A stretch of DNA of 64,000 nt from positions 1 through 64,000 of IMG/VR virus record IMGVR_UViG_3300022912_000005. One strand, written 5' to 3'. A program made the position numbers and the translations under genes. Shown one piece after another: positions 18,666-38,905 of the stretch (the first letter of the stretch is position 1; the number at the start of each line of letters is the position of its first letter). The notes beneath the pieces are model-generated. The model did no database searches. It was not told the origin of the DNA and saw only the letters and a list, made by a program, of their open reading frames with translations. The DNA comes from a virus (lineage: Duplodnaviria; Caudoviricetes).

Positions 18666-18965
18666 ATGAAATTAACAGAAACAAAATTAAGAAAGATCAT
18701 TAAAGAAGAAATAAAAAGTATTCTCATAGAAGGTAATAGACCATTACATCAAATTGCTCGTGAGATTTCACAAGATTGGAAAAAAGTAAATTATGCGGCA
18801 AAACCATATTTAGAAGCAATGTCTACATTGGATTCAATTAAGGATAACTATTACATGGATTCAGGATTATCGATTGTGGCATACTTTTTATCTAATGCAT
18901 CAACTTGGCGTGGTGAAAAAGCGAAGATGATTAAAAAAGAACTTAAAGGTATGATGAAAGGATGA
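18666..18965 (+). CDS. Leader-family protein
   Basis: MKLTETKLRKIIKEEIKSILIE + cargo RPLHQIAREI...FLSNASTWRGE. Confidence 0.85.
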   Translation: MKLTETKLRKIIKEEIKSILIEGNRPLHQIAREISQDWKKVNYAAKPYLEAMSTLDSIKDNYYMDSGLSIVAYFLSNASTWRGEKAKMIKKELKGMMKG

Positions 18966-18977
18966 TAAAGAAATAAA

Positions 18978-19460
18978 ATGAAACTAACAGAATCAAAATT
19001 AAGAAAACTTATTCGAGAAGAGTTGTTAAAAGAAGTTGGCTATCCTCGTGCTAAAAAATATTCAGATGCTGATTTTTATGATCATAAATCTAAAAATCGA
19101 TCAGATTCAGATATACAACTGAAATTTCCAGATGTATATAAATTTACTGTAAAAATGGCATCTGGTATTTTTGACTATGATATGCGATTTAAAGTATATT
19201 CAACTAAACCGTGGAAAAAGGGTGATGCTATAAAATTTCAAAAATTCCTTATTGGACCTAAGGGTGGACCTAAAGACGTAGGATTTAAAGAATTTACTAG
19301 TTCAGCGTTAAAGGGTAAAGATATTGAGGGTTGGAAAATGTATTTTATCACGTGGATCATTGATTATGAAGCTCGGGACCGCTTTAAACCTAAAGATCAA
19401 CAATATGCTGGAAAGAATAAAGTTGGTAAATATAAAAGAAATAAAGGATACCTACATTAA
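18978..19460 (+). CDS. Leader-family protein
   Basis: MKLTESKLRKLIREELLKE + unique cargo. Confidence 0.85.
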   Translation: MKLTESKLRKLIREELLKEVGYPRAKKYSDADFYDHKSKNRSDSDIQLKFPDVYKFTVKMASGIFDYDMRFKVYSTKPWKKGDAIKFQKFLIGPKGGPKDVGFKEFTSSALKGKDIEGWKMYFITWIIDYEARDRFKPKDQQYAGKNKVGKYKRNKGYLH

Positions 19461-19486
19461 ATATATAAAGAATTGGAAATAAAAAT

Positions 19487-19777
19487 ATGAAATTAACAGA
19501 AACAAAACTAAGAAAACTTATTCGAGAATATCTTCATCAGTTGAATGAAACTGATTCAACTTTATCGTTTATAGGTAATATAGCAAAATCTAAATCATTG
19601 ATGAACATGGGTGATGATTTAAAATCAAAATTTGGTAAAAATAATGTTGATTTTTCATTACGACCAGAGGCACATTATACTATAAAATATAAAGGTAAGA
19701 AGATTGTAATTATAAATAAAAAATATGCAGATGGGGCTGATTTAGTGGTTGGTCAGATCGCAGTGGGGTATATGTAA
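19487..19777 (+). CDS. Leader-family protein
   Basis: MKLTETKLRKLIREYLHQLNE + unique cargo. Confidence 0.85.
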   Translation: MKLTETKLRKLIREYLHQLNETDSTLSFIGNIAKSKSLMNMGDDLKSKFGKNNVDFSLRPEAHYTIKYKGKKIVIINKKYADGADLVVGQIAVGYM

Positions 19778-19778
19778 A

Positions 19779-20060
19779 ATGAAACTAACAGAATCAAAAT
19801 TAAGAAAACTCATTAAAGAAGAACTATTGAAAGAAGGTGGTGATATAGGCACTTTAGAAAATGCACGATATCATATAAATGAATTAATACGTGATACAAT
19901 TTCAGCAGTAAATTCAGAGAATTTTTCAGGTGATGATGAAGGACATTCACAAGCAAAAGAAATTACGAAGGATTTGAAAATGCTTCGAAAAAAAGTAGAT
20001 GGTATATTTAAGAAATATAATCAAAATGAAAAACTTTGGTTCAGGAGTGTGGAGACATAA
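19779..20060 (+). CDS. Leader-family protein
   Basis: MKLTESKLRKLIKEELLKE; start re-assigned to the leader Met. Confidence 0.85.
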   Translation: MKLTESKLRKLIKEELLKEGGDIGTLENARYHINELIRDTISAVNSENFSGDDEGHSQAKEITKDLKMLRKKVDGIFKKYNQNEKLWFRSVET

Positions 20061-20064
20061 AATT

Positions 20065-20379
20065 ATGAAATTAGTAAAACTTATTCAAAATGAAGTATTA
20101 ACTGAATCTAATACTACAGTAGATGCATCAATGATATCAAAAATTAAAAATTATACAAAACATAATAATCATACTAAAGCACGAGCTATAATTGCAAATG
20201 ATATATTGAAAAATAAGAAATTATATAAATTTTATATTGCAATACATGATATTAATGAGTATTTTGGACATTCACCACCCGAACTATTAACGTTACGACG
20301 TAATGTTGATGATCTTCATTTAAAGGCTCAATTAAAACAAAAAATTGAAAATTGGAAAGAAGTGTGGGGAGCAATATAA
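20065..20379 (+). CDS. Short-leader protein
   Basis: MKLVKLIQNEVLTE + cargo; start re-assigned. Confidence 0.7.
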   Translation: MKLVKLIQNEVLTESNTTVDASMISKIKNYTKHNNHTKARAIIANDILKNKKLYKFYIAIHDINEYFGHSPPELLTLRRNVDDLHLKAQLKQKIENWKEVWGAI

Positions 20380-20381
20380 AA

Positions 20382-20759
20382 ATGAAACTTACAGAATCAA
20401 AATTAAGACAAATCATTAAAGAAGAGATTCAAAATTTAAATGAAAGTTGGACTGAAAAATCATTAAAGAAAAAAATGGACCTTGCAAATAAATATATCAA
20501 AAAATCACAAAAAGACAATATATCAGCAATTGAAACAGATAGTACTTGGGAAGAAGTATATGATTTTGAATTGATTACACTGAAAGGTAATTTTATATTT
20601 TTTAGCTATAAAGAACCATATAATAGTAAAAAACTCAAAAAGGAACGATTTAGTTGGAAACGAGAAGATATGACAGAAGATATTAAGTATATGTTCCAAT
20701 GGGTAATTAAAACAATCAAAAAAGGTTATCGATCAGAAGGTCAAAAGATACAATTTTAA
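20382..20759 (+). CDS. Leader-family protein
   Basis: MKLTESKLRQIIKEEIQNLNE; GGAG RBS upstream. Confidence 0.85.
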   Translation: MKLTESKLRQIIKEEIQNLNESWTEKSLKKKMDLANKYIKKSQKDNISAIETDSTWEEVYDFELITLKGNFIFFSYKEPYNSKKLKKERFSWKREDMTEDIKYMFQWVIKTIKKGYRSEGQKIQF

Positions 20760-20778
20760 GACATAAACAAGAGGAATA

Positions 20779-21057
20779 ATGAAAAAACATAAGAAAAGAA
20801 ATCACAATCATAACAACAACAGACGAAAGAAACAAACTATGGAGTTCACTGGATTGTCTGTACATGTATACAATGGCAATATCAGTAGGGCATTGAGTGA
20901 TTTTAAGCGAATGGTAAAAGAGAGTGGACTGATGATTGATATTAAGAAAAAATCATACTATAAAAAGAAATCTGAGAAACTTAGAGAATTACGAAATTAC
21001 GGAAAACTAAAGGAAAAATATAGAGCAATCAAAGAAAAGAATGCTACTGATTATTAA
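20779..21057 (+). CDS. rpsU: Phage-encoded ribosomal protein bS21 homologue
   Basis: VHVYNGNISRALSDFKRMVKESGLMIDIKKKSYYKKKSEKLR matches the bS21 pattern V...IE.AL..FKR......L.E.R.R.YY.KPSE. Confidence 0.75.
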   Translation: MKKHKKRNHNHNNNRRKKQTMEFTGLSVHVYNGNISRALSDFKRMVKESGLMIDIKKKSYYKKKSEKLRELRNYGKLKEKYRAIKEKNATDY

Positions 21058-21072
21058 TTGGAGATATAGAAA

Positions 21073-21810
21073 ATGAAATTAGTAGAATCGAAATTAAGAA
21101 AACTCATTCGAGAAGAAATTCAAAGACTGAATGAAAAAATTGAAGGTGGACAAAGTGCTGGGACATTGGAAATAGCTTCTACAAAACCTGATACTGCTCG
21201 TGCGTTTGCAAAGAAAAAGGGTTGGGATATTAGTGAAATTACCAACTTTGATAAGAATTTTAACTTTGCGGCAAAAAAAGCATCGTTGGGTAAAACAAAA
21301 CGTAAAGATATGCCCGTTATTAATGATAATGATGTAAAAGAATTTCAACGTAAATTGGAAAAGGGATATATTGATGTTGTTAAACCATTTTCTAAAACTT
21401 TTAGTGGAAAGAACCCATTTCCAAGTGGATTAAAAGGTGGAGAGGCTCGTGATTTTTTAGAGCGTGGATTAAAAGATGGTGAAAAAAGTGATGATGTGAT
21501 TAGTGTATCTATAAGACAGGTATCAGCAAAAAAATTAAAACCAATTCAAAAGCAAATATATTTTAGTAAAATAGTAGAACCAATGAAAAAATTTGGTGTT
21601 AAAGGATCAACAAAATTTTTAGTATCTCAGACATTTTTTATTGCAAGTGAGGATTTGTATATAATAGATGGACATCACAGATGGTTATCTGCTTTATTAA
21701 TGAACCCTGATATGAAAGTGAATGTATTGACAATTGATTTACCGATAAGAAAATTATTACCATTATCAATTGCATATGGAGATTCAATTGGAAATTCCAG
21801 AAATGGTTAG
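21073..21810 (+). CDS. Leader-family protein with ParB/Srx-like domain
   Basis: MKLVESKLRKLIREEIQRLNE; LKPIQKQI and YIIDGHHRW motifs. Confidence 0.8.
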   Translation: MKLVESKLRKLIREEIQRLNEKIEGGQSAGTLEIASTKPDTARAFAKKKGWDISEITNFDKNFNFAAKKASLGKTKRKDMPVINDNDVKEFQRKLEKGYIDVVKPFSKTFSGKNPFPSGLKGGEARDFLERGLKDGEKSDDVISVSIRQVSAKKLKPIQKQIYFSKIVEPMKKFGVKGSTKFLVSQTFFIASEDLYIIDGHHRWLSALLMNPDMKVNVLTIDLPIRKLLPLSIAYGDSIGNSRNG

Positions 21811-22176: not shown

Positions 22177-22182
22177 TTTAAA

Positions 22183-22653
22183 ATGATAAAGATTGATGTG
22201 AAAATTGGTGACACAATTCTTATGGGAAAGTGGAAAAATAAAAAAGTAGTAATAAAAACTATATCAGAAGATGAGCATGGAATGCCAACGATAAATGGTA
22301 AAAAAATAGTGACGTTTCGCATACCAAAAACAGAAGAAGTTAAGGAAAATAAAAATATGAAATTAACAGAATCAAGATTAAGAAAATTAATTAAAGAAGA
22401 AATTCAAAAGTTGAATGATTCTTATAATGGTGATATATTTTCACACAATCCCGATACTGTTGAAGATGCTAAATCAGAATTGAGATTATTATTAAAAAAG
22501 AAAATGACAGTTGATGATGCAATGAATAAATTACCATTTTCTGATGATGGATTATGGGATGAACTTGATGATGTCAAGTATGGCTCTAATCCAAATGTTG
22601 ATGTTAGATCAATAATAAAAAGAAGATTGGAAAAGTTAGGAATAAAATTATGA
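22183..22653 (+). CDS. Small beta-domain protein fused in frame to a leader cassette (Met at 22357)
   Basis: Internal MKLTESRLRKLIKEEIQKLND with AAGGA upstream. Confidence 0.75.
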   Translation: MIKIDVKIGDTILMGKWKNKKVVIKTISEDEHGMPTINGKKIVTFRIPKTEEVKENKNMKLTESRLRKLIKEEIQKLNDSYNGDIFSHNPDTVEDAKSELRLLLKKKMTVDDAMNKLPFSDDGLWDELDDVKYGSNPNVDVRSIIKRRLEKLGIKL

Positions 22654-22952
22654 AATTAACAGAATCAAGATTAAGAAAAATTATTAAAGAAGAAATTCAA
22701 AAATTGAATTTAGTAGAAAAATTGGATATGTCGGGGATTTCATTAGATCCGACATTTTTATATAAATTGTTGAGTAGACTGCAACAAGATTGTGAATATT
22801 ATTTAGGGTTTGGAGGTCGAAGTATCAGAAACCTTTGGGGTGGAAAAGACCATATAAAATATATGTATGCAATTCATGATAAATTGAAGAAAAAACCAGA
22901 GTGGTTGTCTCTTAATGATATTAAAAAATATGAAAAGGATATGAAACTGTAA
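22650..22952 (+). CDS. Leader-family protein with LPD11-like domain
   Basis: Leader + YKLLSRLQQDCEYYLG...LW...KPEWLSLNDIKKYE, resembling large polyvalent protein domain 11. Confidence 0.75.
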   Translation: MKLTESRLRKIIKEEIQKLNLVEKLDMSGISLDPTFLYKLLSRLQQDCEYYLGFGGRSIRNLWGGKDHIKYMYAIHDKLKKKPEWLSLNDIKKYEKDMKL

Positions 22953-22966
22953 TTGGAGGTAATAAT

Positions 22967-23305
22967 ATGAAATTAACAGAATCAAGATTAAGAAAAATTA
23001 TTAAAGAAGAAATTCAAAAGTTGAATGAAAAATATGATCTGGATTATAAACCACCAAAACCAAAAGCTGATATTCTCAAATCATTAAAGGTTAAGAATCC
23101 AGACACTGAAGTTTTTGATACCTTCATGGATGGTTGGAATAATAAGCGTCATGGGTATACAAATGTGGATAAAAATTGGGCATGGCAGTTAGGTTGGCAT
23201 TACAAAGGATTACAACGTACGGAGCATAGAGGTAATAAATTTGATATAGCTCAATCACGAAAAAATGTCAATAGTATTAAATTGAAATTGAATAAAACTA
23301 GATAA
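22967..23305 (+). CDS. Leader-family protein
   Basis: MKLTESRLRKIIKEEIQKLNE; GGAGG RBS. Confidence 0.85.
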   Translation: MKLTESRLRKIIKEEIQKLNEKYDLDYKPPKPKADILKSLKVKNPDTEVFDTFMDGWNNKRHGYTNVDKNWAWQLGWHYKGLQRTEHRGNKFDIAQSRKNVNSIKLKLNKTR

Positions 23306-23316
23306 GAGGTATATAT

Positions 23317-23589
23317 ATGAAATTAACAGAATCAAGATTAAGAAAACTTATCAAAGAAGAAATTCAAAAATTGAATGAAGAAGTGAAAATGTCAGATGTA
23401 TTGATGAAAGTGAAATCTATTGTGGATAATCATCAAGCACAAAAGATAAATGGAGTATTAGTAGATGCTCAAACAGCTAACGGAATTATGTTGGTGTGGA
23501 ATAAAGTCAAAGACCCAATGAAGGTAAAATTAAATAAATTAAAAATAAATCAACTTGCAAATTTATATTGGAGTATGGTAAAGAAATAA
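23317..23589 (+). CDS. Leader-family protein
   Basis: MKLTESRLRKLIKEEIQKLNE; GAGG RBS. Confidence 0.85.
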   Translation: MKLTESRLRKLIKEEIQKLNEEVKMSDVLMKVKSIVDNHQAQKINGVLVDAQTANGIMLVWNKVKDPMKVKLNKLKINQLANLYWSMVKK

Positions 23590-23590
23590 A

Positions 23591-23911: not shown

Positions 23912-23918
23912 ATAAATT

Positions 23919-24803
23919 ATGAAAAATATATTCAATATAACAAAACAAAGTCAAATAGGTAAAAAACGTCAAAAAGTGAGTAAGTCAGATAAGGATAAAT
24001 TATTTAGTTTGGATGAAAAAGCTAAACGTGATTATAAAGATGAATATAAGAAATTTCAATCATCTGATAAATCAAAGAAATATAGAGCTGAATTAAATAA
24101 ATATAACAGAGATAAAGGCACGTATGGAAATGGTGACTGTAAAGATGCATCACATAAAAAAGGAAAAATAACAGGATTTGAAGCAGAGTCTAAAAATCGT
24201 GGTAGACGAGAAAAAAGTAGACTAAAAAAAGAGTCAAAAATGAATTTTATAGAATCAGAATTAAAAGAATTTGTTAAATATATGAATGGTTTTTATGGGC
24301 CAAAAGGAGTTTATCCAGATAAAAAGAAAAGAATTCTAAAAGTGAACGATATAAAAGCGGCGTATTCAGTATTATTAAAAAAGAAACCAAATTTTGAAAT
24401 TGGATATGATTCAGTTGATAGAGAAATGTTAAGAGATATTTTAATTAGGATGGGAAAGCTTGACCCTGAGTATAATAAAGGTCGGTCAACCAAAGGTAGA
24501 AATGAATCAACAGTGAAAATTACAGAGTCAAAATTGAGAAAATTTATTAAAGAAGAAATTCAAAAATTGAACCAAACTGCTGACCCAAAAGCTGTACTAC
24601 GAGATATAAGAGCCGTTACAAAGAAATTAGACGCATCGTGGAAAAGGAGAGGACCCCATCAACTTTTTGGACAAAAAGAAATTAGAGCATTAACATCTAG
24701 ATATATTGATCCGTCTGATAATTCAAAAGGAATGAAGCAAATTCGAGCTATGATAAAGGACCTTGATCGTTGGGTATCGGAATATAAGTGGATGAACAGC
24801 TAA
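23919..24803 (+). CDS. Multi-module protein with internal leader-like junctions
   Basis: RDYKDEY...GDCKDASH module; MNFIESELKEFVK at 24240; VKITESKLRKFIKEEIQKLNQ at 24513. Confidence 0.7.
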   Translation: MKNIFNITKQSQIGKKRQKVSKSDKDKLFSLDEKAKRDYKDEYKKFQSSDKSKKYRAELNKYNRDKGTYGNGDCKDASHKKGKITGFEAESKNRGRREKSRLKKESKMNFIESELKEFVKYMNGFYGPKGVYPDKKKRILKVNDIKAAYSVLLKKKPNFEIGYDSVDREMLRDILIRMGKLDPEYNKGRSTKGRNESTVKITESKLRKFIKEEIQKLNQTADPKAVLRDIRAVTKKLDASWKRRGPHQLFGQKEIRALTSRYIDPSDNSKGMKQIRAMIKDLDRWVSEYKWMNS

Positions 24804-25052: not shown

Positions 25053-26033
25053 ATGAGTGACATATTAAAGGAAGCAATCGCCGATGCAAAATCAATAAAA
25101 GCCGTTGCTTTAGAAAACGCAAAGATGCAATTACAAGAAGCATTTGAACCACACTTACGATCTATCTTATCAACTAAATTGAGAGAAGAAGATGACGATG
25201 AAGATTATGAAGATGAAATGGGTGATGAGGATGAAGATGAGGAATCATTCGACGAAGATGTTGACGAGGACGTTGATGAAGAAGTTGATGAAGAAGTTGA
25301 CGAAGAAGTTGATGAAGAAGTTGATGAAGACATTGATGAAGACATCGATGAAGATGCTGATGAAGACATTAATGAAGAAGATGACGAAGAATATTCCGAT
25401 GACGATGAATTAGATGCTGAAATCGATAATGTAAATGCAGACTTAGATGATGAAGAAGAAGTTGATGAGGACATTAATGAAGAAGAAGACGAAGATGAAT
25501 ATTCTGACGATGACGAAGATGAAGAAGAATATGATATTGACGAAAACTTATTCAAAGAAGAAGATGACGAAGATATGGATTATTCCGATGACGATGAAGA
25601 AGATGACGAAGAAGAACTTGAAGAGCTTAAAACTAAATACACTGAATTAGAATCTGAATTAGAAGAACATAAGGAAGCTGTTGTATTCTTAAAAGATAAA
25701 TTGCATGAGATTAACATGTTGAATGCAAAACTTTTATATACTAACAAAGTATTTCAAATGTTTAATTTGGATAAAGATTCAAAAATGCAAGTTGTTGAAA
25801 CGTTCGATAGAACAAATACAACTCGTGAGATTAAGTTAGCATATTCAGTATTGTTAGAATCGTATAAGAAAAATACATCTATCGATAGAAAGAAATCTTT
25901 GAAAGAACATGTACTTCCAGGTGGATCATCTAGAAAAACAAAATCTACAAAATCTAAAAAAAGTGAAGAAATAATTAACGAAACATCAGAGATAGCTAAA
26001 AGATTTAAAAAGCTAGCTGGTATTATTAGTTAA
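25053..26033 (+). CDS. Prohead scaffold / core protein (gp22-like position)
   Basis: MSDILKEAIADAK start with AGGAG RBS; very acidic centre; coiled coil; immediately before major capsid gene. Confidence 0.8.
   Translation: MSDILKEAIADAKSIKAVALENAKMQLQEAFEPHLRSILSTKLREEDDDEDYEDEMGDEDEDEESFDEDVDEDVDEEVDEEVDEEVDEEVDEDIDEDIDEDADEDINEEDDEEYSDDDELDAEIDNVNADLDDEEEVDEDINEEEDEDEYSDDDEDEEEYDIDENLFKEEDDEDMDYSDDDEEDDEEELEELKTKYTELESELEEHKEAVVFLKDKLHEINMLNAKLLYTNKVFQMFNLDKDSKMQVVETFDRTNTTREIKLAYSVLLESYKKNTSIDRKKSLKEHVLPGGSSRKTKSTKSKKSEEIINETSEIAKRFKKLAGIIS
25248..25380 (+). repeat. Degenerate 12-bp tandem repeat encoding (V/I)DE(E/D)
   Basis: gttgatgaagaa-type units, about 10 copies. Confidence 0.8.
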
Positions 26034-26059: not shown

Positions 26060-27682
26060 ATGAGACAACAATTAAATGAAGCTTTAAAAGGCTTAACAGA
26101 AACACGAAAAATGGTTGATGTTGCACGAGAATTGGTTGACAAATGGGATGGTTATGGACTATTAGAGGGTCTAAAATCTGATTATGACAAATCAAGCATG
26201 GCTGTATTACTTGAAAATCAAGCGAAACAGTTAGTACAAGAAGCAACTTCAACAGGAACATCGGCTAATTCAGAAGAATGGTCAGGTGTAGCATTACCAT
26301 TGGTACGAAGAATCTTTAGTGACATTGCGGCACAGGATTTTGTATCAGTACAACCGATGAACTTACCATCTGGATTGGTATTCTACTTAGATTTCAAATA
26401 TGGAAATACTGTAGGTAACATCACAGCAGATCAATCTTTTTATGGTAAAACTGGACCTAATACTCCATCAGGATCAAGTGCCCCTTACGGTGTAAATGGT
26501 TTATATGGTGTTGGTAGATATGGATACACTGTATCTCAATCATCACTTACAATAACAACATTAACAACTGCATCTGCGGCTGATGGTGTTGATGATTGGA
26601 ATTATGATACTGAAGTATCTCAATCTAATGCGATTGCCGCTGGTGGAAACTGGTGGAAGGTTGCTATACCAAAATCATCATTTCCACGAGCTGATGAAAA
26701 AGCTATTAGAGCGTACAATGTACAAACAACTGGAAACATTAAAGGATCATTATCACAGTTCCATGCGATATCAGGAAACAACTTTGTATTCTTTGTATCT
26801 GGAGCATCTGGTGATGCAGTAACTGCTAGTTTAAGTATTGATTACTTGAAACAACCTACTGACATTACAAGAGGTGATTTTGAATCTACTGGTACAGCAA
26901 ACAATCCTGAAACGGATATTGCAATTCCAGAGATCAATCTTGAGTTAAAATCTCAAACGATCATTGCTAAAACTAGAAAGTTGAAAGCTGTATGGACACC
27001 AGAAATTGCACAAGATTTAACAGCATATCACGCTGTTGATGCTGAAGCTGAATTAACTTCTATCTTGAGTGAATACATCTCAATGGAAATTGATTTGGAA
27101 ATAATTGATATGTTATTGCTTGACGCTGTAACAGTTGATTATTGGTCAGCTAAAGTTGGTTACGATTGGGTATCTAGTTCAAGTACATTTGCTGGTGATT
27201 CAGTATCACAAGCGGCATATGCTTACACGAAAGCCGAATGGTATCAAACTCTTGGACAACGAATTCAAAGAGTGTCAAACAACATTCATAAATTAACATT
27301 ACGTGGTGGTGCAAACTTCTTAGTATGTTCTCCAACTGTTGCAACAGTTATCGAATCTATTCCAGGATTCCATGCTGATACAGATGGTACAAAAGAACAA
27401 TTCGCTATGGGTGTATCAGCAATTGGTGCATTGAAAAACAGATGGACTGTTTATAAGAATCCTTATATGACAGAGAATGCTATATTGGTTGGATTTAGAG
27501 GAAGTAATTTCTTTGAAACTGGAGCTGTATATGCACCATATGTGCCATTGTTAATGTCACCACTAGTTTATGATCCTAAGAACTTCACACCAAGAAAAGG
27601 TGTGATGACAAGATATGCTAAGAAAATGGTTCGACCAGAATTCTATGGTAAAATCTTCTGTCATGGACTAGAAACTGTATAA
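26060..27682 (+). CDS. Major capsid protein (T4 gp23-like)
   Basis: LLENQ, LVRR, VQPMNLPSGLVFYL, AKTRKLKAVWTPEIAQDL, YAPYVPL and FTPRKGVMTRY motifs. Confidence 0.97.
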   Translation: MRQQLNEALKGLTETRKMVDVARELVDKWDGYGLLEGLKSDYDKSSMAVLLENQAKQLVQEATSTGTSANSEEWSGVALPLVRRIFSDIAAQDFVSVQPMNLPSGLVFYLDFKYGNTVGNITADQSFYGKTGPNTPSGSSAPYGVNGLYGVGRYGYTVSQSSLTITTLTTASAADGVDDWNYDTEVSQSNAIAAGGNWWKVAIPKSSFPRADEKAIRAYNVQTTGNIKGSLSQFHAISGNNFVFFVSGASGDAVTASLSIDYLKQPTDITRGDFESTGTANNPETDIAIPEINLELKSQTIIAKTRKLKAVWTPEIAQDLTAYHAVDAEAELTSILSEYISMEIDLEIIDMLLLDAVTVDYWSAKVGYDWVSSSSTFAGDSVSQAAYAYTKAEWYQTLGQRIQRVSNNIHKLTLRGGANFLVCSPTVATVIESIPGFHADTDGTKEQFAMGVSAIGALKNRWTVYKNPYMTENAILVGFRGSNFFETGAVYAPYVPLLMSPLVYDPKNFTPRKGVMTRYAKKMVRPEFYGKIFCHGLETV

Positions 27683-27832: not shown

Positions 27833-27878
27833 ATATATATTGTATTTTCTATATAATTAACCAATCGGAGCATATTAA

Positions 27879-28238
27879 ATGAAACTAAAAGATATTGTAA
27901 TAGGAGAATTTCAAGAATTGGATGAAGCCATCTCAAAAGAGGAGTGGCAGGGTTATGTTGAATATGGTAAACAATTGAAGACTTATTTGTCTTCACATGA
28001 TTTACGTGGATTGAAATTAAAAGTTAAGGTGATTAAATCAACAAGACCAAATCCGTGGATTGATGTTAGTTTAGTGAATTGGAAAGATGAAACGATACCA
28101 AATGAATTTAGAGTTAAAGTAGCAAAATCAATGTCAGCGTCAGGTGTTAGGGATTGGGATAATGTGCAATATGGTAATATAAGACCCAATTCAATATCAT
28201 TACTGCATAGTCAATGGAAAAAATTATTACATATATAA
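27879..28238 (+). CDS. Short-leader protein
   Basis: MKLKDIVIGEFQELDE; ggagcatattaa RBS region shared with next gene. Confidence 0.75.
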   Translation: MKLKDIVIGEFQELDEAISKEEWQGYVEYGKQLKTYLSSHDLRGLKLKVKVIKSTRPNPWIDVSLVNWKDETIPNEFRVKVAKSMSASGVRDWDNVQYGNIRPNSISLLHSQWKKLLHI

Positions 28239-28252
28239 TTGGAGCATATTAA

Positions 28253-28576
28253 ATGAAACTTACAGAATCGAAATTAAGACAGATTATTAAGGAAGAAATT
28301 CAGTTGTTGAAAGAGGCATTGACACCTAAAGATAAAAAAGTAATAGAAGCATTTTATTATAAAAAATCATTAAGTGGTAAATTATTAACAACGGATGGTA
28401 AATTATTAGAAAAGATGGGAATGGGTGGAATGGATATGGCACATTGGGAAGGACATGATATTGTAATAACAGCAAAATCTGATGTAGCTTCTACCGATTC
28501 AATATTACGATATATGAAGAAATTCATACCAAAGAATAATTTTTCAAGTAAAACACCAATATCAAATTATATTTAA
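28253..28576 (+). CDS. Leader-family protein
   Basis: MKLTESKLRQIIKEEIQLLKE. Confidence 0.85.
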   Translation: MKLTESKLRQIIKEEIQLLKEALTPKDKKVIEAFYYKKSLSGKLLTTDGKLLEKMGMGGMDMAHWEGHDIVITAKSDVASTDSILRYMKKFIPKNNFSSKTPISNYI

Positions 28577-29902: not shown

Positions 29903-30154
29903 ATGAAACTAACAGAATCAAAATTAAAAGAGATAATCAAAGAAGAACTTGAAAAGTTGAATGAGATAATTCCAAAATTACGATTGAAATCTGGAATGAA
30001 AGAATTGGGTGAAATTTATGGAAAATTAGAGGACATAGTACCACCAACTAATATATCAGATGGGGAGCGTAAAAAATTCAATACTGCAATAAAAAACGCA
30101 CAAAAGTCTGTCAGTGAGGTATCACGTATAATTAGAGGTGTTAAATCGTATTAA
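29903..30154 (+). CDS. Leader-family protein
   Basis: MKLTESKLKEIIKEELEKLNE; AGGAG RBS. Confidence 0.85.
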   Translation: MKLTESKLKEIIKEELEKLNEIIPKLRLKSGMKELGEIYGKLEDIVPPTNISDGERKKFNTAIKNAQKSVSEVSRIIRGVKSY

Positions 30155-30627: not shown

Positions 30628-31254
30628 ATGAAACTTACAGAAACAAAATTAAGAGAGATAATTAAAGAAGAAATTCAAAAGTTAAATGAAGGTGGAGGAC
30701 ATCATTTTAAATATGGGAAAAAGTGGTATGTTGATAGTAGCTTTGTAAATTTTTGTCAACGTATTTTACCAAATTCAGAATTAAAACATATGGGATTTGG
30801 TGAATTTGAATTAGAAACTCCAAATGGCACGGTACAATTCGATAGGACTAATGGTAAAAAATTTACTGGTCAGGTTGGTAGATCACATGAAATGTATGAT
30901 GATGTTAATGGTAAACTTGTTGCAAAGCTCATCAAAGGAATGGAACAGAAAAAGAAATCTGAATTGGTGACAGAAGGATTAGTAATAAAGAAAACCCGAA
31001 TTACAAAATTGAATGACTTAATAATAACAGAACAAGAAGATAATAATAATGCGGTTAATGAAATATTATATGATGAAGTGACAGTTGCATTACGAGTGGC
31101 AAATGAGATGAAAACAAAACTTGAAAAATCCATCAAAGATTTAAGTGGAAATAAAGGTGGTAAAACGAAAGAAATGTTAAAATTCAATAAAAAATACTTA
31201 CATGATATTGAAGTACAAATAAAACAGTTGGAAGCCGCTGATAAATTTAATTAA
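30628..31254 (+). CDS. Leader-family protein, two modules
   Basis: MKLTETKLREIIKEEIQKLNE; internal TKLNDLIITE junction. Confidence 0.8.
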   Translation: MKLTETKLREIIKEEIQKLNEGGGHHFKYGKKWYVDSSFVNFCQRILPNSELKHMGFGEFELETPNGTVQFDRTNGKKFTGQVGRSHEMYDDVNGKLVAKLIKGMEQKKKSELVTEGLVIKKTRITKLNDLIITEQEDNNNAVNEILYDEVTVALRVANEMKTKLEKSIKDLSGNKGGKTKEMLKFNKKYLHDIEVQIKQLEAADKFN

Positions 31255-32419: not shown

Positions 32420-32444
32420 ATTTATTGTTTAAATGAAGTAACAC

Positions 32445-32491: not shown

Positions 32492-34288
32492 ATGTCAACA
32501 GAAAAAGTATTATCACCAGGGGTATTTATTAATGAAATCGATAAATCGTACATCCCATCAGCTCCAATTGCTGTTGGTGCGGCTATTATAGGACCTACAG
32601 TAAAAGGACCAGCAATGGTTCCTATCAATGTAAGTTCATATGGCGAATTTGTTCAAATATTCGGTGATACATTCAAAAGTGGTAGTGGATATTACCAATT
32701 TTTAACATCACATACAGCAGAACATTATCTAAAACATAGTGGAAAATTAACGGTAATAAGAACATTGGCTGGTTCATATACAGGGGCAACAGCTAGAGTA
32801 CCAATAAATGGAAGTACAGTGGGAGCCGCCTATCAAAACATAACTAGTGCATCATTTACATTGAATACCATATCAGATGGTGCTATTATGAATAGTAGCT
32901 CATCATTAAAAACTGACAATTTATTGGATTCTGGTTCTGCACATAATATTCAATGGGAAATATCTAACAGAAACAACAGTAAAGGTACATTCTCATTATT
33001 GATTAGAAAAGGTGATGATAGAAATAATAGAAAACAAATTTTAGAATCATGGAGTAATTTAACATTAGACCCAAATTCTAATAACTATATTTCTAAAATA
33101 ATTGGTGATCAAGATGCTACAATTGGTGGTTCTGGAACTACTGATGTTTATTTAACATACACTGGATCATATGCAAATAGTTCTAAATATGTATGGGTAT
33201 CAGGTGTTAAAACTACAATTGATTATTTAGATGAAAATGGTAATGTTAGACTAGCTTCATTATCAGCATCATTGCCAAATGTTGGTAGTGGTTCGTTTGC
33301 AGGTGGAACGAATGGATATTGTGGAACAACAGTTGCACCAGGTGGATTTACATTCACAGCATCATCTAATAATTTCTATGAAAATATTAATTCAACAAAT
33401 ACTCAAGGATTTGATATGGGTACAGGAGATAATGGTAAAACATCATACGAAGATGCTATATATATGTTAGCAAATTCAGATGAATATAATATTAATTTAT
33501 TAATGATACCTGGACTTATTGATGGTGAAGCCAATCATAATGCAGTCGTTACAAAAGCGATTGAAATGGTAGAAGGTAGAGGTGATTGTTTCTTATTGGT
33601 TGATCCTGTTATTCATAATAGTTCAATTACAACTGTAACAACTGAAGCCGCTACTAGAAATAGTAGTTATACTGCTATGTATTGGCCTTGGCTTAAAATT
33701 GCTGATAATGCATTGGGAAAAAATGTCAATGTACCAGCATCAGTAGTTATTCCAGGAGTATTTGCATTCAATGATAAGATTGCTCATCCTTGGTTTGTAC
33801 CAGGTGGACTGAATAGAGGTGGATTAGATGTAGTTGGTATTGAAAGAAAACTACGACAGTCAAATAGAGATGATTTATATGATGCTAATGTTAATCCTAT
33901 TGCATCATTCCCAGGACAAGGGATTTCTGTTTGGGGTCAAAAAACATTACAGAAAAAAGCATCAGCTTTAGATAGAATCAATGTAAGACGATTATTGATA
34001 TTTGTTAAGAAGTTTATTACAAATGTGAGTAGAACAATTGAGTTTGAACCAAATTCAATAGCTACACGAAATAGATTTTTAAATATTGTTAATCCATTCT
34101 TAGAGCAAATCAAAGCTAATGAAGGATTAAATGAGTTTAGAGTAATTATGGATGATACGAACAATCCACCAGAATTACAAGATAGAAACATATTATATGG
34201 TCAAGTGGTATTAAATCCAACACGATCAATTGAATTCATTTTGTTAGATTTCAGTGTTGAACCTACAGGGGCGAATTTTGATTCATAA
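32492..34288 (+). CDS. Tail sheath protein (gp18-like)
   Basis: SPGVFINEID, YWPW, WFVPGGLNRG, VWGQKTL and DRINVRRLL motifs. Confidence 0.96.
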   Translation: MSTEKVLSPGVFINEIDKSYIPSAPIAVGAAIIGPTVKGPAMVPINVSSYGEFVQIFGDTFKSGSGYYQFLTSHTAEHYLKHSGKLTVIRTLAGSYTGATARVPINGSTVGAAYQNITSASFTLNTISDGAIMNSSSSLKTDNLLDSGSAHNIQWEISNRNNSKGTFSLLIRKGDDRNNRKQILESWSNLTLDPNSNNYISKIIGDQDATIGGSGTTDVYLTYTGSYANSSKYVWVSGVKTTIDYLDENGNVRLASLSASLPNVGSGSFAGGTNGYCGTTVAPGGFTFTASSNNFYENINSTNTQGFDMGTGDNGKTSYEDAIYMLANSDEYNINLLMIPGLIDGEANHNAVVTKAIEMVEGRGDCFLLVDPVIHNSSITTVTTEAATRNSSYTAMYWPWLKIADNALGKNVNVPASVVIPGVFAFNDKIAHPWFVPGGLNRGGLDVVGIERKLRQSNRDDLYDANVNPIASFPGQGISVWGQKTLQKKASALDRINVRRLLIFVKKFITNVSRTIEFEPNSIATRNRFLNIVNPFLEQIKANEGLNEFRVIMDDTNNPPELQDRNILYGQVVLNPTRSIEFILLDFSVEPTGANFDS

Positions 34289-34331
34289 TGAATAATAACA
34301 TGAAAATATATAATATAAACGGAGAAAAATA

Positions 34332-34820
34332 ATGGCTGATATATTAAGTGCAAATGAGATGTTTTACACACCATTTGAACCAAAATTACAGAATAGATTT
34401 GTTTTACAAATTGATGGAATACCATCATATTTAGTTAAGGGTGTTGCAAGACCTTCATTTAATTTTGAAGAAGTTGTAATTAATCACATGAATATCAAAC
34501 GATATGTTAAAGGTAAGATTGAATGGCAACCTATTTCAGTTACTTTATATGAAGCAATTGAACCATCAGCAGCCGCATCTGTTATGGATTGGATAAAATT
34601 ACATCATGAATCATCAACTGGTAGAGATGGATACAGTGATTTCTACAAGAAAGATATTTCATTATTGTTGATTGGTCCTCCAGGAGATAAAGTTGAAGAG
34701 TGGACATTCAAAGGTGCATGGATTCAAGATTGTAATTTTGGTGATTTATCATTAGATTCAAGTGATCCAGTAGAAATTGAGATGTCGCTTCGGTACGATT
34801 ATGCGAATTTAACGTATTGA
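34332..34820 (+). CDS. Tail tube protein (gp19-like)
   Basis: EPKLQNRF...WQPISVTLY...EEWTFKGAW...LRYDYA; follows sheath. Confidence 0.9.
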   Translation: MADILSANEMFYTPFEPKLQNRFVLQIDGIPSYLVKGVARPSFNFEEVVINHMNIKRYVKGKIEWQPISVTLYEAIEPSAAASVMDWIKLHHESSTGRDGYSDFYKKDISLLLIGPPGDKVEEWTFKGAWIQDCNFGDLSLDSSDPVEIEMSLRYDYANLTY

Positions 34821-34834
34821 TTAGGAGTTGAACA

Positions 34835-35134
34835 ATGAAATTAACAGAATCAAAACTAAGAGAAATCATCAAAGAAGAAATTCAAAAGTTGAATGAAGGT
34901 GGTGGTAAACAATCTATTGTAGAACTTGAAACAATGAAAGGTAGTATTACTAATCATATATTGAATATGCGTAAAAAAGAGGCAAGTCAACTACAAGGGG
35001 TGATTAAATATTCTTTAAAGGCAATGAAACAATCAGATATAGAAAAATGGGAAAAAGTGGAATATCAAGGGGTGATAAAAGATGCTGAGTTTAGATTGGC
35101 TTGGATTAACAAGGATATTAAACGATTATCGTAA
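34835..35134 (+). CDS. Leader-family protein
   Basis: MKLTESKLREIIKEEIQKLNE. Confidence 0.85.
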   Translation: MKLTESKLREIIKEEIQKLNEGGGKQSIVELETMKGSITNHILNMRKKEASQLQGVIKYSLKAMKQSDIEKWEKVEYQGVIKDAEFRLAWINKDIKRLS

Positions 35135-35162
35135 TCAAAAATTAAATTTCTAGGAGCAAACA

Positions 35163-35501
35163 ATGAAAATTACAAAAACAAAACTAAGAAATATCATCAA
35201 AGAAGAATTATTGAATGAAGCTAAACAAACTGATGCAGGAAAATATTTAGCAGATAGAGACATGGAAGATACTGTTGAAGAGGCGGCTGATGAGTTATTT
35301 GAATTGATTAATTCAGAAGTACTTAAATCTATACAGAAGGTTGTTAATACTGCCACTAAAAAGATACATTCAAAACATAAAATAAATAGATATGACGCTG
35401 TGCAGGTAAATAAGGCTTTTATAAGAAAATTTCATGATAATAAAAAGATTACAGATAAAACTGGTACTGATGTTATAACGAAAATATTTGATTATATTTA
35501 A
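35163..35501 (+). CDS. Leader-family protein
   Basis: MKITKTKLRNIIKEELLNE. Confidence 0.85.
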   Translation: MKITKTKLRNIIKEELLNEAKQTDAGKYLADRDMEDTVEEAADELFELINSEVLKSIQKVVNTATKKIHSKHKINRYDAVQVNKAFIRKFHDNKKITDKTGTDVITKIFDYI

Positions 35502-35514
35502 TAGGAGTTGAACA

Positions 35515-35787
35515 ATGAAACTTACAGAAACAAAACTAAGACAGATCATCAAAGAAGAATTATTGAATGAGGAATATTTCTATAATATTTCGTTTAATTG
35601 GAACAGTATTGTATCGGAATATATGAAATGGGAAAAGGCATCGTTTGATAATTATTCAGAAATGGAAAATGCAAAAAACACTGATGAAGGTTGGAATACA
35701 AAAGATGCAAAAGTTGAAATTCTAGAAGAACTATTATCTGAATTGCAGAAAAAATCAAAACGAAAAGATAAAATTAAAATAAGTTAA
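35515..35787 (+). CDS. Leader-family protein
   Basis: MKLTETKLRQIIKEELLNE. Confidence 0.85.
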   Translation: MKLTETKLRQIIKEELLNEEYFYNISFNWNSIVSEYMKWEKASFDNYSEMENAKNTDEGWNTKDAKVEILEELLSELQKKSKRKDKIKIS

Positions 35788-35803
35788 AATAAAGGGTCAT
35801 AAT

Positions 35804-36352: not shown

Positions 36353-36374
36353 ATTAGGTAAATGAGTTAGAACA

Positions 36375-36917
36375 ATGAATTTAAATCAGCAACTTACACC
36401 AAATTTTAAATACTATGAAATGGTCCGAAGTGATACTGCTACCAGATTTGGTATCGATAATATACCAGTAGATGAATATATAGTTAACTTCACTACATTA
36501 TGCAAATGTGTATTAGAGCGTATCAGATCAAATTACAAAAGACCGTGGAATAAACATTATATTAAAGTATTAAGTGGTTATCGGAACAATGCTCTTAATA
36601 TTCGAGTAGGGAGCACGAATACGAAATCACAACACAAGTTTGGTGAGGCTGCTGATTTTAAAGTTAAAGGAATTGATGTAAATGATGTGTTCAAATGGAC
36701 AATATTCAGTGACATTGATTTTGATCAAATAATATCAGAATTTGTATCAGAGGATGGTAGAGAAGGATGGATACACATATCTTATAAACGAAATGGTATT
36801 AATCGAAATAAAGTATCAATAGCCAAAAAGATATTGCCAATGGGTAGTAAGAAGTTAATAACAAAATATTATCACTTTAAGAGAAGTGACATTTTAAAGG
36901 GAAAGATAATACTGTAA
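36375..36917 (+). CDS. Peptidase M15-family (Zn D-Ala-D-Ala-type) endolysin candidate
   Basis: LTPNF, SGYR, SQH..GEAADF and WIHISY motifs. Confidence 0.88.
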   Translation: MNLNQQLTPNFKYYEMVRSDTATRFGIDNIPVDEYIVNFTTLCKCVLERIRSNYKRPWNKHYIKVLSGYRNNALNIRVGSTNTKSQHKFGEAADFKVKGIDVNDVFKWTIFSDIDFDQIISEFVSEDGREGWIHISYKRNGINRNKVSIAKKILPMGSKKLITKYYHFKRSDILKGKIIL

Positions 36918-37009
36918 TGAATTACTATGTATATACATTAAAAGACCCAATAAAATATAAAGAATATGTTGATAGACGAAATGTAACTAGATTTAAAAAG
37001 AAAGTATGA
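36917..37009 (+). pseudogene. Remnant of a GIY-YIG-like endonuclease gene (30 aa)
   Basis: MNYYVYTLKDP resembles the YYVYxLxDP N-terminus of GIY-YIG proteins; the following YVGKG motif is absent; start overlaps peptidase stop. Confidence 0.45.
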
Positions 37010-37014
37010 ATAAT

Positions 37015-37362
37015 ATGAAATTAACAGAATCAAAATTAAGAAAGATCATCAAAGAAGAAATTCAAAAATTGAATGAAGCTAATTCATTTATTAAACTGAA
37101 TTTTAATTCACATAAAAAGCATAACCCTAGTGTTGATATACTTGAGGGTTATATAAACTCAGATGCAAAGATAACATATTATATTAATATAAAGGGTAAA
37201 GATATTGGCAATGAGGGTATGGAGTATTACACTGGACCAAATTATGTAAGTGGAGCATCAGGTAAAAGTTTTTCAAGGCATTTTACAGTAGATAAAATAC
37301 CAAGCAAATATAAAAACATGTGGCTTGAATTGAAAAAAATATATGAAAAGAAATATAAATAA
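37015..37362 (+). CDS. Leader-family protein
   Basis: MKLTESKLRKIIKEEIQKLNE. Confidence 0.85.
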   Translation: MKLTESKLRKIIKEEIQKLNEANSFIKLNFNSHKKHNPSVDILEGYINSDAKITYYINIKGKDIGNEGMEYYTGPNYVSGASGKSFSRHFTVDKIPSKYKNMWLELKKIYEKKYK

Positions 37363-37547
37363 TATTAGAGTTTTATGATTCTACAACAAAGAGTGGATGG
37401 ATTCATATATCTTATAAACGAAATGGTATTAATCGAAATAAGGTGTCCGTAGCCAAAAAGATATTACCAATGGGTAGTAAGAAGTTAATAACAAAATATT
37501 ATCATTTTAAAAGAGGTGATATTTTGAAAGGAAATGTAATAATATGA
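37357..37547 (+). pseudogene. Orphan duplicate of the M15 peptidase 3' end (repeat of 36727-36917)
   Basis: Reads IILEFYDSTTKSGWIHISYKRNGINRNKVSVAKKILPMGSKKLITKYYHFKRGDILKGNVII*, colinear with the peptidase C-terminus; no start codon at its 5' end. Confidence 0.9.
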
Positions 37548-37912
37548 AACTTACAGAATCAAAATTAAGAGAAATCATCAAAGAAGAAATTCAGAAGTTG
37601 AATGAAGGTGCAACACAATTAGGTCAGTTTGTAAATGCTAATAGTGAAGCAAAAATAGAAAAATGGTTTAAGACTATGCAAAAAAAAGATGCTAAACAAT
37701 ATGGTAAAAATCCATATGGTGCTAATTGGACTAGTTTTGATGGAATAGAAATTGTATATGGTAAAACATTTTCAGATTCAAAACAAGACAGAAAAAAAGC
37801 ATTCGATTATATAACGAATAATTCTGAAAAATATGGGCCTGCTTTGGCTGTACGTATAGTATCAAATGGTAAGCCGTTTGGATATGCTATTGGTGGTTGG
37901 GTAGCAGAGTAA
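37544..37912 (+). CDS. Leader-family protein
   Basis: MKLTESKLREIIKEEIQKLNE; ATGA overlap with orphan peptidase tail. Confidence 0.85.
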   Translation: MKLTESKLREIIKEEIQKLNEGATQLGQFVNANSEAKIEKWFKTMQKKDAKQYGKNPYGANWTSFDGIEIVYGKTFSDSKQDRKKAFDYITNNSEKYGPALAVRIVSNGKPFGYAIGGWVAE

Positions 37913-37918
37913 AATATT

Positions 37919-38308
37919 ATGAAACTCAAAACAATATTAGCAGAAAATGTTATCAATGAGACTCTTAATACTGATGGTGTTATAAAGAGAACATTAGTAA
38001 ATCAAATATATAAACAAATTGGCCCAATAACTAAAGGCTTTTTTAGAGACAATGCATGGCAAGGAATTCATAAAGTATTTGATAAATTCTCAACATTAGG
38101 ATTAGATTATAGTATAACAGATTCCTATTATGGTAATCATAAGCACGACAATACAATGCCAATGGAAAGAAAACGTTGGTTCTTTGAGATAGAGCTTACA
38201 AATAAACGAGGTAGACCTGATAAGATAAAAGGTGTAATGACAGCCGCTGGTGCAGGCACACTTGATGATCCATTAGATAAATATGATATAACAGTTGTTA
38301 TGTCGTAA
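37919..38308 (+). CDS. Short-leader protein
   Basis: MKLKTILAENVINE + cargo. Confidence 0.75.
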   Translation: MKLKTILAENVINETLNTDGVIKRTLVNQIYKQIGPITKGFFRDNAWQGIHKVFDKFSTLGLDYSITDSYYGNHKHDNTMPMERKRWFFEIELTNKRGRPDKIKGVMTAAGAGTLDDPLDKYDITVVMS

Positions 38309-38322
38309 GGAGAAATTAGAAT

Positions 38323-38604
38323 ATGAAACTAACAGAATCAAAACTAAGAGAAATTATAAAAGAAGAAATTCAAAAGTTGAAAGAAAACTCAGCATATTTG
38401 CCATTAAAATCTAATCGTTATTTTTATAATAAACGAGATGATAAAACATTAAAAATAGTATCAGTTGATGGTGATGATATAGGTGTACAATATTATGATT
38501 ATAAGACAAAAAAGCCAACTGGAAAACAAGTACATTATAATAAATCTGAAGTAGATTATTGGATTAAAAAAGGTGCATGGTCAGTATACAAACAGAAATT
38601 TTAA
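38323..38604 (+). CDS. Leader-family protein
   Basis: MKLTESKLREIIKEEIQKLKE; AAGGAG RBS. Confidence 0.85.
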   Translation: MKLTESKLREIIKEEIQKLKENSAYLPLKSNRYFYNKRDDKTLKIVSVDGDDIGVQYYDYKTKKPTGKQVHYNKSEVDYWIKKGAWSVYKQKF

Positions 38605-38617
38605 TAGGGGGTATAGT

Positions 38618-38905
38618 ATGAAATTAACAGAATCAAAATTAAGAAAAATCATCAAAGAAGAAATTCAGAAGTTGAATGAAGCTAATAAATTTAGTGTATA
38701 TGTTCAGAAATATACATCATCTAACTATGATGAGTATGATCCTGATAGGGGTAAAACGTTTCCAAAACTTGATTACAAGGAGTTTGAAACTAAACCTGAA
38801 GCAAATAAATATAAACGTCAATTATTGAAAAAGTATAATATGAATAAACACTATAATAATGGAATTAATTTTAAAAAACAACTTGAATTATTCACTAATT
38901 ATTAA
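38618..38905 (+). CDS. Leader-family protein
   Basis: MKLTESKLRKIIKEEIQKLNE; start re-assigned. Confidence 0.85.
   Translation: MKLTESKLRKIIKEEIQKLNEANKFSVYVQKYTSSNYDEYDPDRGKTFPKLDYKEFETKPEANKYKRQLLKKYNMNKHYNNGINFKKQLELFTNY

Follow-up and report, generated by a model that had tools for sequence, protein, structure and literature searches.

The internal proteins (IPs) of phage T4 are described as having only a short N-terminal targeting peptide in common (PMC9026906; PMC3012670; PMC5694885; PMC12373910). This peptide is reported to dock the proteins on the scaffolding core and to be removed by gp21, a protease that cuts after L/I-x-E (PMC9026906). In T-even phages, the IP genes are presented as polymorphic and as coding for anti-restriction proteins that are injected (PMC3012670; PMC12373910), and the T-evens together are credited with 'at least 10' or 'more than 30' variants. 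Repeated DNA blocks have been described in T4-type phages as well. PeSL elements, which combine an early-type promoter with a G+C-rich stem-loop and are intergenic, flank ORFans in hyperplastic regions, PeSL-like elements exist at the T-even IP loci, and insertion, deletion and replacement of such cassettes by the phage's own homologous recombination was proposed (Arbiol et al. 2010, PMC2839356). Here we analyse a 64,000-nt stretch of viral DNA (the window), which is the first 64 kb of the 113,597-bp IMG/VR record IMGVR_UViG_3300022912_000005 and comes from an uncultured marine T4-type myovirus. Within it, a 63-nt coding repeat provides the same leader peptide to 22 otherwise unrelated cargo sequences. 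With moderate confidence we propose that this leader is a propeptide that targets internal head proteins to the capsid, comparable to the IPs of T4 but forming a much larger and more varied group.

By analogy, the leader system appears to work most like the T-even internal-protein system. As for the capsid targeting sequence (CTS) of T4 IPI-III and Alt, which is removed by gp21, a short N-terminal peptide is the sole common part of unrelated, non-essential-looking proteins, the peptide ends in L/I-x-E, and both a gp21-family protease and an acidic scaffold are encoded. As in the T-even IP loci, the genes occupy variable spots of a conserved backbone. The differences from T4 are considerable. 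The leader has 19-21 residues and not ~10, and 22 copies are present in one genome compared to three IPs and Alt in T4. Moreover, the copies are dispersed among the head and tail genes and not gathered in two small loci, relatives encode multi-leader polyproteins, and packaging and cleavage are predicted here. The propeptides of inner-head and ejection proteins of phiKZ, 201phi2-1 and SPN3US provide a second parallel. In these phages, a protease related to gp21 removes propeptides from many head proteins by cleavage behind Glu, the N-termini of paralogs have stayed identical where the remaining sequence differs, and one propeptide can have several cut sites (PMC5694885). The phiKZ-type motif is S/A-x-E, however, most of these propeptides are given as longer than 100 residues and their cargos as paralog families (PMC5694885), whereas the leader has L/I-x-E and its cargos are unrelated ORFans.

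The leader repeat and its cargos

A six-frame peptide search of the entire record identified 22 leader copies, all on the + strand and between positions 17417 and 38680, and zero copies in the other 75 kb. At the DNA level, a degenerate 27-mer had 20 matches at ≤3 mismatches, again all on the + strand, compared to 0 in 100 shuffles. The near-identical recurrence of the leader, reported in an earlier note on this DNA, is thereby confirmed, but the family starts at 17417 and not at 18666 as stated there. The repeat comprises 63 nt and encodes a peptide of 19-21 residues with the consensus MKLTESKLRKIIKEEIQKLNE. Residues L8, I12 and E14 are invariant, and M1, K2, T4, E5, R9, E15 and L19 are nearly so; a 19-residue variant with two codons fewer occurs in four copies (18978, 19779, 35163 and 35515). 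The leader forms the start of the gene in 19 copies and lies in frame within longer open reading frames (ORFs) in the remaining three (17417, 22357 and 24513). In the first of these, a Zeta-toxin/AAA_33-like kinase domain makes up the N-terminal part of the ORF ahead of the leader, and an internal ATG at 17423 has AGGA upstream. Most copies begin 1-28 nt past the preceding stop codon or overlap it.

Mean pairwise identity over the 22 copies, for which random 20-mers give 0.30, amounts to 0.80-0.86 in codons 1-16 and to 0.60 in codons 17-21, the latter being an ungapped figure that is lowered by the two-codon deletion variant in four copies. Identity is only 0.40 in the 20 nt upstream of the ATG (-20 to -1) and 0.32, and thus near background, from +64 on, and similarity extends upstream in only 2 of 231 copy pairs. 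Since identity drops at both flanks, the conserved block runs from the ATG to codon 21 with sharp edges. The earlier note had counted the ribosome-binding site (RBS) as part of the block, which these values do not bear out. A Shine-Dalgarno-like tetramer is found upstream of 17 of the 22 copies, and the RBS is present as in any gene, outside the conserved block. Scans between the cassettes for late promoters, sigma-70 promoters and terminators remained at chance level (promoter-like sites, 108 versus 128 expected; terminator-like sites, 6 versus 4.8; TATAAATA, 26 versus 21). Literature searches found no description of this leader peptide, although this does not prove the absence of such a paper.

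The cargos behind the leaders comprise 62-224 residues (n=22). Comparison of cargo with cargo yielded no similar pair in blastp (best E 0.13), nothing at E ≤0.1 in any forward frame in tblastx, and only short A-rich matches in blastn (best 18 nt, E 1.7e-4). Due to this lack of similarity in any forward frame, the cargos are not frame-shifted duplicates of each other. Their median net charge of +6.5 per 100 residues contrasts with that of the other small proteins of the genome (~-1, n=112; Mann-Whitney p 1e-6), and basic cargos would suit proteins packed with DNA. Family matches in Pfam or PHROGs were obtained for few cargos, and ParB-like leads for the 21073 cargo come from the protein atlas only. 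PADLOC on 30 proteins gave nothing credible, and a PDB sequence search with two cargos gave nothing below E 0.29. An AlphaFold2 single-sequence model of the 22650 gene product was discarded as unusable (mean predicted local distance difference test score 51). Among 164 distant loci, a homologue was found for only one of the 22 cargos, that of 17417, in loci L009 and L090, where it bears its own N-terminal leader. This shows a high turnover of the cargos, but does not tell by which mechanism.

A second, shorter leader class, M(I)KLK..(I/L)..E, with ~10 residues and mostly ending in [LI]xE, is present at the gene starts 18099, 20062, 21811, 27879 and 37919. It also occurs in relatives (MIKLKDLLTE and MIKLKSLMTE in L009; MRLKEILLE and similar in the uncultured huge phage LR756508) and may be a second targeting peptide of T4 length.

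The leader as a candidate capsid-targeting propeptide

We propose that the leader docks the cargos on the scaffolding core during prohead formation. The gp21-family prohead protease would then remove the leader at L/I-x-E, with candidate sites ending at residues 5, 14 and 21, while the cargos would stay in the head and exit with the DNA. Packaging, cleavage and ejection, like an actual exchange of cassettes, are predicted here rather than observed. The leader genes belong to the late structural module, start ~2 kb downstream of the gp21 homologue and lie around the genes for the gp23-family capsid protein, the sheath and the tube. Over 148 residues, the protease is 33.8% identical to T4 gp21 (BLASTP, E 2e-25). 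The motif [LI]xE, whose background rate is 0.013 per position, ends at residues 17-24 in 20 of the 22 leaders, the exceptions being 22357 (LND) and 24513 (LNQ). It ends at residue 5 in 20 leaders as well, and I[KR]E is found at residues 12-14 in all 22. The presumed processing enzyme is the protease encoded at 14967-15578, and the presumed docking partner is the acidic scaffolding-core protein encoded at 25053-26033, which has no Pfam or PHROG match and is assigned as gp22-like by position and composition only.

The small conserved gene beside the protease (14352-14618), which holds the position of T4 genes 67/68, encodes a leader-like N-terminal helix, an acidic run and then a ..E-ANTTGSVGG.. 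motif; the arrangement is that of a leader-like helix, Glu and a (S/N)TTG...G(Y/F).TP.AF-type motif. In relatives, the small gene at this place bears the leader type of its own genome, which in L034 is exactly the array leader.

The leader is conserved as a peptide. Substitutions between copies are conservative (K/R, I/L, S/T), while Leu and Ile codons vary, with TTA, CTT or CTA at codon 3 and ATT, ATC, ATA, CTT or CTC at codon 11. Phages with core proteins that are only 50-60% identical to the ones encoded here have leader arrays of their own, in which other codons are used. Five genes of L090 begin with MKLTKSKL[KR]E.I[KR]EE and six genes of L034 with MKKSELKQIIKEEL. In the 484-kb genome of LR756508 (40% G+C), at least 18 leader ORFs, counted by eye, are located around the head genes, with a far more diverged motif. 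Since the same peptide is encoded by other codons in distant phages, the peptide and not the DNA is the primary conserved object. Six LR756508 paralogs considered as Alt-like ADP-ribosyltransferases were dropped, as they had no Pfam match.

In a leader profile search (8000 candidates scored of 5.8 billion), E ≤0.01 was reached by 163 proteins. Among the 120 matches listed, 98 come from outside this phage. The leader lies within the first 8 residues in 89 of these 98 listed proteins, and two or three leader copies per polypeptide occur in 14 of them, in one case with an HD domain between two leaders. In the window, the strain variant P0129 carries a stop-to-Gln change that fuses the 21073 gene to the next gene, 21811, a member of the shorter-leader class. 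Both the fused multi-leader polypeptides and the P0129 fusion make sense if the protease resolves them.

Several points weigh against a head-loading function. The presence of the cargos in the virion and their cleavage are predictions from sequence. Because [LI]xE is short and the peptide is rich in K, E, L and I, the motif could be compositional. T4 targeting peptides are given as 10-20 residues long (PMC5694885), and peptides of 10-21 residues are too short to be linked meaningfully by sequence. In BLASTP, the small head-module genes had no significant match to T4 gp67/gp68, and neither had the scaffold to gp22. The helical hydrophobic moment of the consensus is 0.42 compared to 0.23 for shuffled sequences, but 7% of the shuffles reach it, and three leader copies are internal to longer ORFs. 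Every feature of the CTS class that can be tested on sequence was found here, and the features that define its function are predicted.

A different job for the same protein module seems unlikely to us. The leader could be an uncleaved docking or oligomerisation helix for a partner outside the prohead core, for example on the capsid exterior or the neck, or for a host factor or phage regulator. Such a helix would agree with the residue-level conservation across distant phages, with the heptad-like hydrophobic pattern (L8, I11/I12, I16, L19) and with the occurrence of leaders inside polypeptides as well as at N-termini, and cleavage is itself a prediction. It leaves unexplained, however, that the copies sit in the head-assembly module beside the protease and scaffold genes, that the conserved block ends at L/I-x-E in 20 of the 22 copies, and that the cargos are basic, as expected of proteins packed with DNA. 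In addition, the same helix heads the conserved small gene at the position of the T4 prohead-core genes 67/68. We therefore prefer the capsid-targeting propeptide.

Co-folding of the scaffold (25-row alignment) with the leader protein of 23317-23589 gave a score of 0.00, which counts neither way on binding. Within the scaffold gene itself, acidic repeats with a period of 12 nt (GAAGAAGTTGAT and variants) form a long tract at 25185-25658. The conserved scaffold C-terminus, ..RFKKLAGI.., resembles the N-terminal leaders ..AKRLQELAGI.. and ..RRMQKLAGI.. of gene pairs in relatives (L052, L077 and L092:4777-5241), which may use a scaffold-tail mimic as loading tag.

DNA-level similarity and probable exchange between leaders

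The DNA similarity of the leaders is mainly a by-product of peptide selection in a genome with 30% G+C. A second layer is nevertheless supported, in which leader copies were duplicated, converted or recombined with one another. As the proposal of the earlier note requires, synonymous identity is higher than codon bias would predict: where two copies encode the same residue, the codons agree in 2473 of 3264 pairs (0.758), compared to simulated values of 0.554 (standard deviation 0.023) with genome codon usage and 0.521 with cargo usage (z 9-11). The first 16 codons of other genes exhibit no N-terminal codon bias that could explain this excess. For codons 1-16, synonymous identity is 0.786 within the window (expected, 0.537) and decreases in comparison with relatives to 0.708 (L013), 0.671 (L090), 0.621 (L097), 0.529 (L034) and 0.403 (LR756508). 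The extra component within the genome is modest. At codons 11 and 12, ATC accounts for 8 of 15 and 8 of 22 Ile codons, respectively, compared to 8% genome-wide.

The clustering by position claimed in the earlier note was also found, as copies further apart in the genome have more synonymous differences (Mantel rho 0.28, p 0.0005); no such correlation exists for residue differences or for the upstream 20 nt. Four adjacent copies, of which 22357 is the first (22357, 22650, 22967 and 23317), differ by 3-6 nt and are the only ones with TCA AGA at codons 6-7. Likewise, copies 34835, 37015, 37544, 38323 and 38618 are mostly 3-6 nt apart. Other variants private to neighbours were as described: 34835 and 35515 have TAGGAGTTGAACA in common upstream of the ATG, and 35163 and 35515 have ATC ATC AAA GAA GAA TTA TTG AAT GA in common. 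The likeness reported for 27879 and 28253 holds for the DNA (27863-27892 and 28237-28266 are 90% alike), but the 27879 gene has a different, shorter leader (MKLKDIVIGEF...). Since neighbouring leaders are alike and their cargos are unrelated, leader and cargo cannot share one history. These separate histories imply that leaders were copied from one gene to another or underwent conversion between genes.

At the 3' end of the endolysin gene, a stretch of ~220 nt is duplicated with ~90% identity, and the homology stops at the last codon of the leader, before two unrelated cargos. The ~101-nt insert of the first copy is filled by a 30-codon ORF (36917-37009, MNYYVYTLKDP...). Its start resembles the N-terminus of GIY-YIG homing endonucleases, and it has no Pfam match. 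The repeat-cargo-repeat-cargo layout at 36765-37912 has the topology that a circle would be expected to leave if it inserted at a repeat already in place, a route put forward for PeSL cassettes (PMC2839356). Tandem duplication and later replacement of a cargo would give this layout too. In the metagenomic protein P0010, the leader core KLRQIIREEIQKLNET is tandemly duplicated within one N-terminus, a trace left by slippage or by unequal exchange within the leader.

Near-identical strain variants, compared in ten protein clusters with more than one member, have changes at 6 of 168 leader residues versus 3 of 1163 others (odds ratio 14, Fisher p 2e-4). In variant P0130 of the 35515 gene, two changes fall into the leader and zero into the cargo. 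The leader changes T6S, R9K and L11F correspond to states present in other copies, as gene conversion would produce. As the leader is the only homology between cassettes, and exchange within it keeps both frame and tag, it probably eases the turnover of cargos via phage recombination. We regard this role as a side effect and not as that of a dedicated integron-like device.

This recombination layer has its own weaknesses. The leader copies are not independent, so that the z-scores overstate significance. The synonymous excess is partly common to phages with saturated divergence of the core genes (0.62-0.71). This part suggests codon choice specific to the position, shared descent or old exchange and not recent exchange. 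The leader-biased strain variation could partly be assembly noise in a repeat, although P0130 is found on 6 contigs of up to 109 kb, which makes this alternative weaker than for single-contig variants. Finally, the Logan contigs of four runs contained no cassette indel that breaks within a leader. The contigs of these runs are identical to the window and end at leaders, e.g. at 19781, 22383 and 37578. The joints listed in run contigs have 20-26 letters on the short side and were flagged unreliable, none being credible, and a joint that goes back from 22709 to 18650, with a short side of 48 letters in two runs, lies at the very first base of the region compared and is not interpretable. At least 94% of the sampled words are contained in 20 runs, and contigs of 118,745, 111,312, 109,376 and 106,059 bp carry identical or near-identical proteins. 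In megablast, none of 50,697 phage records matched the array, and an exact-pattern scan of viral contigs retrieved two contigs, both distant.

The earlier note went further and proposed integron-style gain, loss and swapping of cargos via UvsX. That the block is kept chiefly as a DNA site for such events, the peptide being secondary, we consider quite improbable. Part of this proposal stands. Synonymous identity above expectation, clustering with private variants common to neighbours, unrelated cargos, the duplication joint at the end of the leader and the strain variation biased to the leader are all compatible with a homology block. A RecA/UvsX-family gene is indeed encoded, and according to Arbiol et al. 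(2010, PMC2839356, citing Singer 1982) less than 50 bp of homology is required for recombination of the T4 type. As a primary function, however, a DNA site conflicts with the conservative substitutions between copies, with the freely varying Leu and Ile codons and with the distant phages, which keep the peptide and change the codons, down to a synonymous identity in LR756508 (0.40) that is below expectation. The edges at the ATG and at a protease-type motif fit a coding function and not a recombination site, and cassette indels were not observed. Among the 80 window ORFs covered by the Pfam scan there is no integrase, RecA/UvsX being the only recombinase family found. Neither attC-like nor promoter/stem-loop elements were seen in what was scanned, the repeat search being one for direct repeats. 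The term 'integron-style' is an analogy only. The locus shares with integron arrays a one-directional row of unrelated small genes, each bounded by a repeat, but the repeat is a coding N-terminus and not an attC hairpin, and exchange would be homologous and not site-specific. The T-even IP loci and the PeSL cassettes are nearer precedents, although the leader repeat differs from the intergenic PeSLs in being coding, in the short spacers of most copies and in the chance-level outcome of the promoter and terminator scans.

A role at the RNA level, as common translation-initiation region or as operator of a translational regulator that co-ordinates the leader genes, would fit the start of the block at the start codon and the recurrence of rare codons at fixed positions (ATC at codons 11-12, with the same pattern in L090 and L034), but is very improbable, since the first 16 codons of other genes lack such a bias, copies in long ORFs and metagenomic polyproteins keep the peptide far from start codons, and LR756508, with 40% G+C, encodes the peptide by other codons.

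Genomic setting and significance of the array

A T4-type head and tail module was recognised in the window by Pfam and PHROGs, and the T4-type replication and recombination module, which includes gp32, comes after it (Table 1). The + strand holds 176 of 178 genes predicted by a crude gene call, and the completeness of the record is estimated at ~53%. No deposited phage has a capsid protein with more than 54% identity to the one encoded here, and those of Microcystis phage Mel-JY01, LR756508 and the Flavobacterium phage immuto group come closest. When contig collections were scanned with the major capsid protein as anchor, identities reached at most 59% in viral and 57% in metagenome contigs.

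Table 1 Leader genes, duplicated blocks and head, tail and recombination genes of the window
Feature	Position	Strand	Remarks
Portal (Portal_T4)	10541-13387		Interrupted by an intein with HNH endonuclease and NUMOD3 motif
Small conserved head-module gene	14352-14618	+	Position of T4 genes 67/68
Prohead core serine protease, T4 gp21 family	14967-15578	+	PF03420, E 6.7e-30
Leader copy 1 and 111-residue cargo	17417-17815	+	In frame inside ORF 16604-17815
Leader gene	18666-18965	+	Cargo matches PHROG 13953 (unknown function)
Leader gene, 19-residue variant	18978-19460	+	Leader ends ..EEL-LKE
Leader gene	19487-19777	+	
Leader gene, 19-residue variant	19779-20060	+	Closest leader is 18978, 9 nt apart
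Leader gene	20382-20759	+	
Leader gene, 224-residue cargo	21073-21810	+	PHROG 2859
Leader copy and cargo	22357-22653	+	In-frame part of ORF 22183-22653; LND in place of LNE at leader end
Leader gene	22650-22952	+	Cargo is an LPD11 domain (PF18824, E 1.9e-23)
Leader gene	22967-23305	+	Leader 3 nt from those of 22357, 22650 and 23317
Leader gene	23317-23589	+	
Leader copy and cargo	24513-24803	+	GTG replaces ATG, leader ends LNQ; in frame inside ORF 23919-24803
Acidic scaffolding-core protein, gp22-like	25053-26033	+	By position and composition only
Major capsid protein, gp23 family	26060-27682	+	PF07068, E 7.9e-78
Leader gene	28253-28576	+	Between major capsid gene and head-tail adaptor-like gene
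Leader gene	29903-30154	+	
Leader gene, 187-residue cargo	30628-31254	+	
Tail sheath	32492-34288		
Tail tube	34332-34820		
Leader gene	34835-35134	+	Directly after tail tube gene; two weak PHROG matches
Leader gene, 19-residue variant	35163-35501	+	
Leader gene, 19-residue variant	35515-35787	+	Upstream 13 nt match 34835; 3' half matches 35163
M15 endolysin	36375-36917		
Duplicated block, copy 1	36765-37077	+	Last 147 nt of endolysin gene, ~101-nt insert, AATAAT, leader
Leader gene	37015-37362	+	After M15 endolysin gene
Duplicated block, copy 2	37395-37606	+	Endolysin 3' remnant, AATAAT, leader
Leader gene	37544-37912	+	After duplicated endolysin 3' end
Leader gene	38323-38604	+	
Leader gene, last copy	38618-38905	+	
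RecA/UvsX-family recombinase	50698-51798	+	PF00154, E 9.8e-49

Some further features of the genome were observed. Within 7600-10520, only a 278-residue ORF (7600-8436) matches the N-terminal domain of the T4-type large terminase; the two ORFs that follow it (8426-9313 and 9300-10520) are without Pfam match at E ≤1e-4, and an inserted gene may interrupt the coding sequence of the terminase. A gene for ribosomal protein S21 (20779-21057; PF01165, E 3.8e-10) lies inside the leader array, and Mel-JY01 has an S21 gene at the same place, between protease and scaffold. The region 59493-63348 encodes PTPS/QueD, a radical SAM protein, GTP cyclohydrolase I, QueC and DUF5591, a pathway of the 7-deazaguanine type that suggests modified DNA bases. 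Outside the window, at ~94,000-111,000 of the record (locus L176), a second, unrelated array consists of ~45 tandem small genes of 60-110 residues, most of which begin with MKYY(I/V), and many of which have overlapping stop and start codons. Of 13 genes scanned there, 11 had no PHROG match and 2 match families of unknown function.

It is conceivable, if doubtful, that one coding leader serves the marine 'far-T4' clade, including its huge phages, both as capsid address and as homology patch for UvsX, whereby effectors would be swapped in frame and already tagged. If this is true, the leader would constitute an integrase-free cassette system for an injected arsenal of at least 20 proteins, and the multi-leader polyproteins would be its fused, protease-resolved form.

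If the leader is a head-loading tag, this phage would carry ~22 different passengers and its relatives similar sets, while T4 is known for three or four. The cargos, nearly all of them without known function, would then be prime candidates for injected anti-defence or take-over factors of abundant marine phages. The tag would provide a sequence handle for finding such proteins in metagenomes, ~100 of which came from one search, and is a candidate tool for loading foreign proteins into capsids of phages other than coliphages. The findings at the DNA level suggest, without proving it, that such an arsenal may turn over without dedicated recombinases, which would extend the ideas developed for PeSL cassettes and IP loci to a coding repeat.

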